64,000 bases of DNA from Escherichia coli (GTDB taxonomy: Bacteria; Pseudomonadota; Gammaproteobacteria; Enterobacterales; Enterobacteriaceae): assembly GCF_003334355.1 (NCBI RefSeq), contig NZ_QOWP01000002.1; one strand, given 5' to 3'. The notes below the pieces were generated by a model. It was not told the DNA's origin, made no database searches, and saw only the letters and a list, made by a program, of their open reading frames with translations. Shown here piece after piece: positions 42,328 to 44,265 of this stretch. Position 1 is the first letter of the stretch. Each line of letters begins with the position of its first letter. A program made the translations under genes and the position numbers.

Positions 42328-44265
42328 CTAACCATCATACCAAGCATAGTTAAGATACTGTGTAACTCTATTTCTTGATAGTTCAAATAGCTGAGTGCCA
42401 TTTTGAACTCCAGACAGATCAAACCTGGTATTTTTGGTTAGCATATCCCATCCAGTAGCAGCTGGTGATACATACATTTTAGTGGTGGACATAGGGATTA
42501 TGTTACCCCTCAAGCTAATGTCTGAAATAGAACCTGAACCTGTTACTTCCAGTGAAATTCCTTTGTTGGATGCTGGACATAAAATAGTGTTGCCAGAAGC
42601 AATAAAACCAGTCATGGAACCCGACGTTAGCATGTCTATACCATCTGAAAGGGTATAAGCGTTATTATTAGTGACCTTCACGTTTGACGTGTTTCCAGCG
42701 TCACTAGCCTTGATGAAATTGGTTGTGTTGCTTGACCGGTTGTAGTCAACATTAAGCCCAGCTATTGTTGACGCTCTCAGGAAATAACTATCATTAGAAC
42801 TATTGCCAGAGAATACATTTTCAGAAATATAAACATCTTCAGACATATATACATCTGCAAATGATTTACACGTCCCTTTTGCCCTGTTGCGGTTTATTTT
42901 GATGTGTTTACTACCACTACCATCATATGTCTTGATGAATAATGGGATTACAACAGCACCGCCGATCAGGTCGTTATCCGTAATTTCAATCTCATCCGCA
43001 TGGTTTCCTATATGAAATGCTTCTGTTCCATACTGACCTGCCGACAATATGTTCTTGTACACTTTGCCATACGAGGTATTGGCATGAGTATCTATGCCAA
43101 AGGTTTGACCAACACCAGCGCCTTGAATGAAGTATCGTGCAGCAAATCCGATAATATTGTTATTATATACCTTGAAATTTGAAGCGGTGTGACCTTCGTC
43201 GGGTTCAATATCTATACCAGCTAATAGCGTATCACCTATGTAGTTTCCATGAATCTCAAACTGCCTAGTATCACTTCCGGCTGCAATACCCATCCTATTG
43301 GTTGTAATGATGGTGTTATGCCTTACCTTGAAATTTTTCGCGTTATAAACCAGGATGCCATCACCACGCTGCATCCCTACACCACCAATATTTTTGATAT
43401 TACAATTTTGAATTAACAGCCCATCCGTCTGTACATCGTAGTTTGCATAATCACCGAACCATATTCCTATGCCGCACTCACCGGATAGCATTGAAATTCC
43501 AATATCGTGAACATTCACGCCGTCTATAACGATATTGCTGCCACCGTACCCACGAATTCCTCCATCCAGGGTGCCTGTTATATCAACATCAATCACTTTG
43601 GCGTTGGAGATGTTAGCCATAAGTATCCCGGATTTCTCTTGCTGAGTTCCGCCATCAAATTGAAAGTTTAATGACCCGCTATGCATCACTTTATTACTTT
43701 TGTGGTTAATAGGTGAGCGAAGTTTTGAAACGAATCCGACGCCACCAAGTTTAACGCTAGGAGATTCAGAGTCTAATGCAGCGGATACAGCAGCATCGTT
43801 GAACTCTCCATCAATAGCACCCCATCCGCGAATGTCACCCTCTTCTCTCCACTGCTGAATTTTAATATGCTGATCCATCGATGGGATTAGAAGATATCCA
43901 TTTGGACCCGCTAGCTCTTGTCTTAATTGGTCAGGGTCATACTTCAGCACATTAGGAAAATAGAACTGCTGGGAACCATACGCATCATAAACAGCCATAG
44001 AATGGCCTTGCACAGTTACGAACTTGGCAATCTGTCCGTTATATACCGGGTAACCAGCAGCGTTAATGATGATTGGTTGCGAAACAGGAACGTGAGAACC
44101 GTCTTCGTTCTCCACATAAACCTGAATCTGGTTTTCTGGATTTACCGGATCCGTGTCAATTTTACCGATATAAATTTTACCATTGGCTACGGCTTTAAAA
44201 GAACGAGCCATAGTGAAGAGTTGCGATGGCATTGATACGATCACATTGGCTGTAATGTCTGTCAT
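42328..44265 (-). CDS. Tailspike protein (P22 gp9-type head-binding domain plus beta-helix receptor-binding domain)
   Basis: 645-aa ORF; first ~110 aa ([11 protein letters not shown]...[23 protein letters not shown]...VLKYDPDQ) closely match the P22 tailspike head-binding domain from recall; remainder is Asn/Gly/Ile-rich with repetitive beta-helix character. Confidence 0.85.

Follow-up and report, generated by a model that had tools for sequence, protein, structure and literature searches.

A P22-like prophage tailspike of Escherichia coli with a receptor-binding domain of the O111 subtype

Introduction

As the host-range determinants of short-tailed temperate phages, the tailspikes of P22 (gp9), Sf6 (gp14) and HK620 (gp9) are built on one plan, in which a conserved head-binding dome is joined through a YDPDQ junction to a neck and a long beta-helix, and in each phage the tailspike gene closes the late operon. 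Here we describe a tailspike of this plan, encoded at 42328..44265 on the minus strand of a 64,000-nucleotide stretch of Escherichia coli DNA (contig NZ_QOWP01000002.1 of assembly GCF_003334355.1; the whole stretch is called the window below), which belongs to a P22-like (Lederbergvirus-type), temperate prophage. An earlier note on this DNA, made from its letters without database searches, had described a P22-type head-binding domain followed by a divergent, beta-helical receptor-binding domain that might recognise a different O-serotype, an interpretation that is partly supported by the analysis reported here.

The closest described systems are the members of a published group of receptor-binding proteins (RBPs). 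This "O111 RBP subtype" comprises the RBP of the Lederbergvirus prophage of strain 110512, ECGD1_RBP and STP55_RBP4, and membership calls for an identity of at least 30% across 60% or more of the receptor domain (PMC10408124). Two of its members have been put to functional use: the 110512 receptor domain, grafted on the R2 tailocin from Q113 onwards (as given in the supplement) to make "R2-O111", produced about 4 log of killing of an O111 strain (PMC11762384), and transfer of the C-terminus of STP55 TSP4 into phage CBA120 resulted in plaques on E. coli O111 (PMC12737597).

The carriers of these proteins differ. STP55 (a Kuttervirus; TSP4, orf00054, UPU15645.1) and ECGD1 (a Justusliebigvirus; tailspike gp151, AMM43477.1) are lytic phages with several tailspikes each, whose anchors are of the myovirus branched tailspike complex type and unrelated to the N-terminus of the tailspike described here, which comes from a temperate prophage. 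Much nearer are the prophage RBPs of strains 110512 (WP_136721029.1) and 11128 (WP_000129903.1), which share with it the length of 645 residues and a convergent O-acetyltransferase (oac) neighbour; those prophages lie next to dacD/sbmC and differ in the immI region, whereas the window prophage lies at argW. By combining domain searches, a structural model, surveys of phage and bacterial genomes and a family alignment, we propose that the tailspike couples a conserved dome to an exchangeable neck and beta-helix that very probably recognise the O-antigen shared by E. coli O111 and Salmonella O35, and most likely hydrolyse it as well.

Results and Discussion

A P22-type anchor joined to an unrelated beta-helix

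The open reading frame (ORF) is intact and lies exactly where the earlier note had placed it: it starts with ATG, preceded by GGAG about 8 nt 5' of the start, and encodes 645 amino acids in a complete frame that includes the stop codon, as seen in the ORF list, the PHROG match and public protein matches. The PHROG family phrog_19784, "tail spike protein", aligns over 1-645/645 with 1450 bits, and the exact protein is public as "phage tailspike protein [Escherichia coli]" (OWD66918.1, EEA7340441.1 and others). A scan for promoters and terminators around the gene gave fewer promoter-like matches than shuffled controls and nothing interpretable.

Residues 1-113 (43927..44265, minus strand), which end in the YDPDQ motif, form a P22-type head-binding (tail-attachment) domain, as in the P22-like tailspikes generally: the Pfam model Head_binding (PF09008, 113 positions) matches residues 1-113 with an E-value of 1.7e-66, and 105 of the 113 residues (93%) are identical in Sf6 gp14 (PDB 7sg7), 86 of 112 (77%, residues 2-113) in P22 and about 90% in HK620. 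When the protein was compared with all PDB sequences by phmmer, matches were confined to residues 1-118, with E-values of 2.6e-65 for Sf6 gp14 and 1e-45 to 1e-52 for P22 and HK620-type tailspikes; as alignments go, the P22-type match of the N-terminus is far beyond chance. Past residue ~118 no solved tailspike was matched in the same search, and at the DNA level the stretch that is common to hundreds of E. coli P22-like prophage tailspikes ends at ~43902-43925 (codons 114-121). The P22-like segment of about 110 residues that had been read from the letters is thus confirmed.

The remainder, residues 114-645 (42331..43926, minus strand), is predicted to consist of a neck or N-cap followed by a right-handed beta-helix, the receptor-binding domain of the O111/O35 subtype. 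The Pfam family Beta_helix (PF13229) is found at residues 212-372 (E 1e-10), and an AlphaFold2 model of residues 114-645, built from a 25-sequence alignment as a monomer only, is a right-handed parallel beta-helix of the kind that ends the P22-like tailspikes (mean predicted local distance difference test score, pLDDT, 89.8; predicted TM-score 0.87); a single-sequence run on the full protein, with a pLDDT of 37.6, was set aside for it. No sequence homology was detectable between the beta-helix domain and the receptor domains of P22 gp9, Sf6 gp14 or HK620 gp9. The description of a divergent, beta-helical remainder therefore holds, with one refinement of the module boundary: similarity to the tailspikes of CUS-3, Gally, Kapi1 and other P22-like phages extends to residue ~158-184. 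Several database representatives, in turn, match residues 114 to ~165 only. The neck/N-cap segment is accordingly shared more widely than the beta-helix, and the alignments suggest that this short segment is swapped somewhat independently of it.

The receptor-binding domain belongs to the O111 family

Searched against phage genomes with tblastn, the C-terminal ~530 residues were found in ECGD1, in STP55 and in "Escherichia phage ECO111 5-P", the last of which names E. coli O111 as host in its deposited record. In ECGD1 the tblastn similarity began at residue 70, which was considered as a remnant of a head-binding domain in a phi92-like phage and rejected when a multiple alignment placed the start of homology at ~114. 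From there to the C-terminus the domain is homologous throughout in STP55 TSP4 and likewise from ~114 in ECGD1 gp151, all family motifs being present in both, as in the tailspike itself; over residues 114-645 the identities are 95.5% (110512), 92% (ECGD1) and 81% (STP55), which places the tailspike in the O111 RBP subtype as defined.

Across its whole length the protein is identical at 622 of 645 positions to that of O111:H- strain 11128 and 96% identical to that of 110512. On these alignments it is an allelic variant of a published, functionally exploited O111-specific family, and in that sense already known and ordinary. The earlier note had named near-identity of the whole protein to a characterised tailspike as the finding that would speak against it, and this is largely what was found, with respect to specificity (96% to 110512/11128) and not to structure or enzymology. 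The family is small: a HMMER scan of 1.84 billion cluster representatives returned 42 at E<=1e-3 and seven at E<=1e-30.

Among 5,426 complete E. coli genomes, megablast recovered the whole gene at ~97% nucleotide identity in 22 and the gene alone in one more, and nearly all of these 23 genomes with the receptor domain are labelled O111. With wzx and wzy of the O111 cluster of strain 11128 as queries, O111 was recognised in 60 of the 5,426 genomes, and all 23 carriers of the receptor domain (23/23) fall among these 60, including non-STEC backgrounds (that is, other than Shiga toxin-producing E. coli) such as HCM-22C-2 and EPSSH018. The direction of the association of the receptor domain with O111 is unambiguous despite clonality. 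For close relatives, the literature has shown that O111 is targeted, and we infer the same specificity for the present allele. The serotype that the note had left unnamed would thus be E. coli O111, or Salmonella O35, as judged through the relatives, and its claim that the swapped beta-helix domain sets the host range holds, the O-antigen concerned being a different one from that of P22.

Some annotations point to another surface glycan that co-occurs with O111/O35, such as colanic acid or a capsule: the tailspike also matches phrog_8280, "tail spike protein with colonic acid degradation activity", with an E-value of 6e-110, and one member of its cluster bears the UniRef name "Endo-alpha-sialidase". 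Both names are automatic annotations, however, and the phrog_8280 score, with profile positions 1-422/632 aligned, must owe much to the shared head-binding domain. With the domain in O111 genomes in every complete case and also in Salmonella O35, and with domain transplants that confer O111 tropism or killing, we regard a different glycan as a highly improbable receptor.

Proposed mechanism and candidate active site

In the proposed mechanism, residues 1-113 form a conserved dome that would dock the trimer (we infer trimeric assembly) on the gp4/gp10 tail hub of the phage. The part beyond the YDPDQ junction is an exchangeable unit, made up of a short neck and a long right-handed beta-helix. 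The helix would bind the O-antigen of E. coli O111 and Salmonella O35, a polymer that contains colitose, and probably hydrolyse it, such that the virion descends to the outer membrane. That the tailspike cleaves O-antigen, as the word depolymerase implies, is most likely in view of its fold and family. The O111 repeat unit contains colitose, glucose, galactose and N-acetylglucosamine and is not known to contain uronic acid, without which the polymer would be no substrate for a lyase; hydrolysis is for this reason favoured over lyase chemistry. The beta-helix polysaccharide lyases and C5-epimerases (AlgE4, K1 and K5 lyases) are a class that works on polymers with uronic acid, through abstraction of the proton at C5.

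Candidate catalytic residues were taken from an alignment of 25 family members reaching down to 20% identity (alignment A2). In it, G256, G265, G267, G295, G297, G301, D302, R324, D352, E354, G386, Q387 and N588 are invariant and D234, E263, R300, N317 and D392 nearly so. The family-invariant motifs, whose consensus includes GQ.FGID.H, lie on successive coils (43084..43392, minus strand), one at residues 292-303, followed by NRMGIA at 323-328, AGIDIEPD at 349-356 and GQTFGIDTH at 386-394, and all are intact in this allele. The alignment thereby singles out D302, D352, E354 and D392, on consecutive coils, as a candidate active site.

The beta-helix might instead bind the O111/O35 O-antigen with no hydrolysis of its backbone, as a pure adhesin or with another activity such as the removal of a substituent. 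The characterised O-antigen tailspikes of P22, Sf6 and HK620 are endoglycosidases, which counts against this idea, and the persistence of the invariant acidic residues in homologues down to 20% identity argues for catalysis. The tailocin and CBA120 chimeras, moreover, act via O111 lipopolysaccharide (LPS), a route that usually needs penetration of the O-antigen. We consider a non-hydrolysing domain rather improbable, and prefer the reading in which the domain both binds and cleaves.

Several points nonetheless weigh against a hydrolase specific for O111/O35. The count of 23 genomes is inflated by clonality, most of them being O111:H8 or H-; the allele differs from the tested one of 110512 at 24 positions, nine of which are unique and C-terminal; a contig of strain ECOR04 has the same sequence as the window, and ECOR4 is reported to be without O-antigen; the term hydrolase draws on the fold, the family and the sugar composition; and the literature searched gave no report of LPS cleavage, of a product structure or of an experimentally determined three-dimensional structure for any family member.

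Allelic variation and fine specificity

Relative to the 110512 allele, residues 1-258 are identical and the 24 substitutions all lie further on in the receptor domain. The domain is a mosaic: over residues 259-480 (42826..43491) it matches ECGD1 at 219 of 222 positions (98.6%) and the O111:H- prophage allele at 210 of 222. The last ~55 residues carry changes of their own, namely P591, M592, S593, M597, Y637 and Y640.

These differences, the ECGD1-like segment and the unique C-terminal patch among them, together with an O-acetyltransferase gene that travels with the tailspike, leave room for the idea that the allele has drifted or recombined towards an altered fine specificity, for example one that prefers or avoids an O-acetylated variant of O111/O35. 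Half of the variant residues (12/24), however, are common to ECGD1 and/or ECO111 5-P, none of the 24 falls on an invariant column of alignment A2, and O111 is a target even of STP55 TSP4, whose identity is no more than 81%. An altered specificity is therefore unlikely, and we retain O111/O35 recognition of the ordinary kind for this allele.

Salmonella relatives and possible movement between genera

The exact 645-residue protein is also encoded on contig AAOZEO010000008.1 (locus L003, assembly GCA_010911815.1), by a prophage integrated at the same tRNA-Arg site. There the host flank is ~81% identical to E. coli and 97.2% identical to the type strain of Salmonella enterica subsp. diarizonae. 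Between ~40500 and 54265, a late region of 13.8 kb that includes the tailspike and oac genes, the E. coli and Salmonella copies differ at two positions, and so small a number over 13.8 kb points to recent mobility; the pair looks like the product of recent cross-genus movement of one phage. The same protein occurs in metagenome contigs with different immI regions, and its 90% protein cluster also holds a "phage tail protein [Salmonella enterica]".

Other Salmonella prophages carry the module in another setting. A related oac protein is named, from one source record, after serovar Adelaide, and its gene adjoins a 645-residue tailspike at positions 852-2789 of locus L020 (GCA_006640485.1). This tailspike has the same junction, the same receptor family (~86% identical over residues 114-645, with STP55-like segments in the allele) and a convergent oac gene, and its surroundings are described as the same arc/ant/mnt neighbourhood; it differs in the head-binding domain, which follows the P22 (Salmonella) type and not the Sf6/HK620 type of the E. 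coli tailspike. It is a clean natural case of a module swap at the hinge.

Wang and Reeves are said to have described in 2000 the O111 and O35 antigens as one and the same. Serovar Adelaide has the formula 35:f,g:- and so belongs to O35 (PMC6859910). Taken at the level of sequence, the Salmonella data fit an O111/O35 polysaccharide as the receptor, with the module exchanged at the hinge onto genus-typical anchors.

The prophage and its host

The tailspike gene lies near one end of the prophage, of which the window holds a part only. That end is the attachment site in a tRNA-Arg(CCU) gene (39776..39850, plus strand, found by ARAGORN), followed by a tyrosine integrase gene (39976..41169, plus strand, PHROG integrase), and the flanking host genes fadL, fadI, fadJ and yfcU are of E. 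coli, with 99.2-99.4% identity to several complete genomes. Listed upstream of the tailspike in the direction of the late operon are genes for a P22-type coat protein, gp4, gp10, an HNH endonuclease insert and a gp26-like protein, and then for gp14-like, gp7, gp20 and gp16 proteins, a SieA-like exclusion protein and a Mnt-family repressor. P22_Tail-4, Phage_stabilise, P22_gp7, Inj_translocase, Phage_P22_gp16, SieA, Mnt, integrase and tRNA-Arg are all present, and the arrangement, with the tailspike at the end of the late operon, a P22-type gp4/gp10/gp26 tail and the immI and int-att regions adjoining, is that of a P22-like prophage. The head-binding domain should attach to the products of the tail-hub genes at 50255..53405, all on the minus strand: gp4-like (52944..53405, Pfam P22_Tail-4 on the identical locus L002), gp10-like (51516..52934, Pfam Phage_stabilise on the same locus) and gp26-like (50255..50962, from the ORF list). 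Between the last two lies a homing-endonuclease-like ORF of 181 residues with NUMOD4/HNH_3 domains (50949..51494, minus strand), which overlaps the start of the gp26-like gene.

Divergent from the tailspike is a gene for a Mnt/Arc-family repressor (44401..44652, plus strand; PF03869 Arc, PF11423 Repressor_Mnt), and no more than 135 bp (44266..44400) separate it from the tailspike start. Neither arc nor ant lies between the two genes, whereas in O111:H- strain 11128 both sit there. This spacer contains a perfect 7-1-7 palindrome, AGACCACTGTGGTCT, at 44323..44337, which we take to resemble the Mnt operator of P22, and it may be that the tailspike now lies directly in front of a Pant-like promoter that Mnt controls. 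The SieA-like superinfection-exclusion gene (45341..45835, plus strand; phrog_7745, PF26849) is situated between gp16 and the immI region and is adjoined by an ORF of 121 residues with no assigned function (44945..45310, minus strand; phrog_1365).

The O-antigen cluster of the host lies outside the 64-kb window, and the host was approached through identical sequences. Sequences with 100% identity to the window are contig DABAWU010000002.1 (GCA_012531255.1), two Logan assemblies and LYBG01000830.1; the last corresponds to window positions 39836..54265 and belongs to LYBG00000000, in the literature E. coli ECOR04. ECOR4 has been described as lacking O-antigen, a description that traces to an O-nontypeable serotype entry; T7 and T1 plate on it, and it serves as a permissive host for these and many other phages. 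The receptor may consequently be absent from the surface of the present host, either through loss after lysogeny or because an O111 cluster is there but silent. A look-up of the O111 Wzy protein found it in four places among 7,363 index blocks, the relevant assemblies not being among them, and no usable in-silico serotype table of the ECOR strains was found in the literature. The note had raised the possibility that the recognised serotype is the host's own; the relatives in complete E. coli genomes do sit in lysogens with the O111 cluster, and for the present host the suggestion is no more than a possibility. An O111-type tailspike prophage in a reference strain reported as lacking O-antigen or O-nontypeable is a puzzling combination.

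The gene could for these reasons be an intact but idle relic, carried by a defective prophage or by a host that has ceased to produce the receptor. The reported state of ECOR4, the absence of arc and ant, three lesions in the neighbouring oac gene and the partial view of the prophage in the window all leave space for this. All late genes within the window, however, are intact ORFs of expected sizes, the late region is nearly unchanged in the Salmonella copy (two differences over 13.8 kb), and the same protein recurs in metagenome contigs with different immI regions. An idle relic is thus a possibility that we take seriously and still doubt, and a working O111/O35 tailspike is the reading that we carry forward.

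The linked O-acetyltransferase gene

Convergent with the tailspike lies the O-antigen acetyltransferase gene (41220..42287, plus strand; Acyl_transf_3; phrog_3333, "O-acetyltransferase"), a pseudogene according to its translations and a comparison of its homopolymer tracts. Two of its lesions are homopolymer frameshifts: the tract at 41319-41326 is A8 instead of the required A7, and that at 41373-41379 is T7 instead of T8. The third lesion is TGA for GGA at 41388-41390, within the VISGF motif. Other combinations occur among the relatives: 11128 and 110512 have A7/T7/GGA, and two metagenome contigs have A8/T8/TGA. The repaired 11128-type gene (A7/T8/GGA, 355 residues) is found exactly on 125 public contigs, a 5.40-Mb chromosome among them. 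Since this repaired allele is public beside the frameshifted ones, intact and broken oac genes, which differ at a homopolymer tract, coexist among O111 strains, a coexistence of ON and OFF states that could reflect phase variation, decay or, in part, sequencing error in homopolymers.

A broader hypothesis can be put forward tentatively, as one that has a reasonable chance of being right and a greater one of being wrong: that one temperate phage moves between E. coli O111 and Salmonella O35, its host range set by the shared O-antigen and not by genus, and that the linked oac gene, as a seroconversion gene that is phase-variable at its poly-A and poly-T tracts, tunes the sensitivity of the lysogen to its own tailspike.

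Implications

The practical value of the tailspike is modest, in that it adds one more natural allele of a receptor domain that already serves in tailocins and reporter phages aimed at O111. Positions that tolerate change can be read from its mosaic of ECGD1-like and prophage-like segments, and the invariant motifs around D302, D352, E354 and D392 give a concrete starting point for work on catalysis in the family. The side observations may interest more than the tailspike itself: near-identical prophage DNA in E. coli and Salmonella, receptor domains fused to genus-typical anchors, and ON and OFF alleles of oac. Taken together, these would make the locus a tidy natural example of O-antigen-driven phage traffic between genera.

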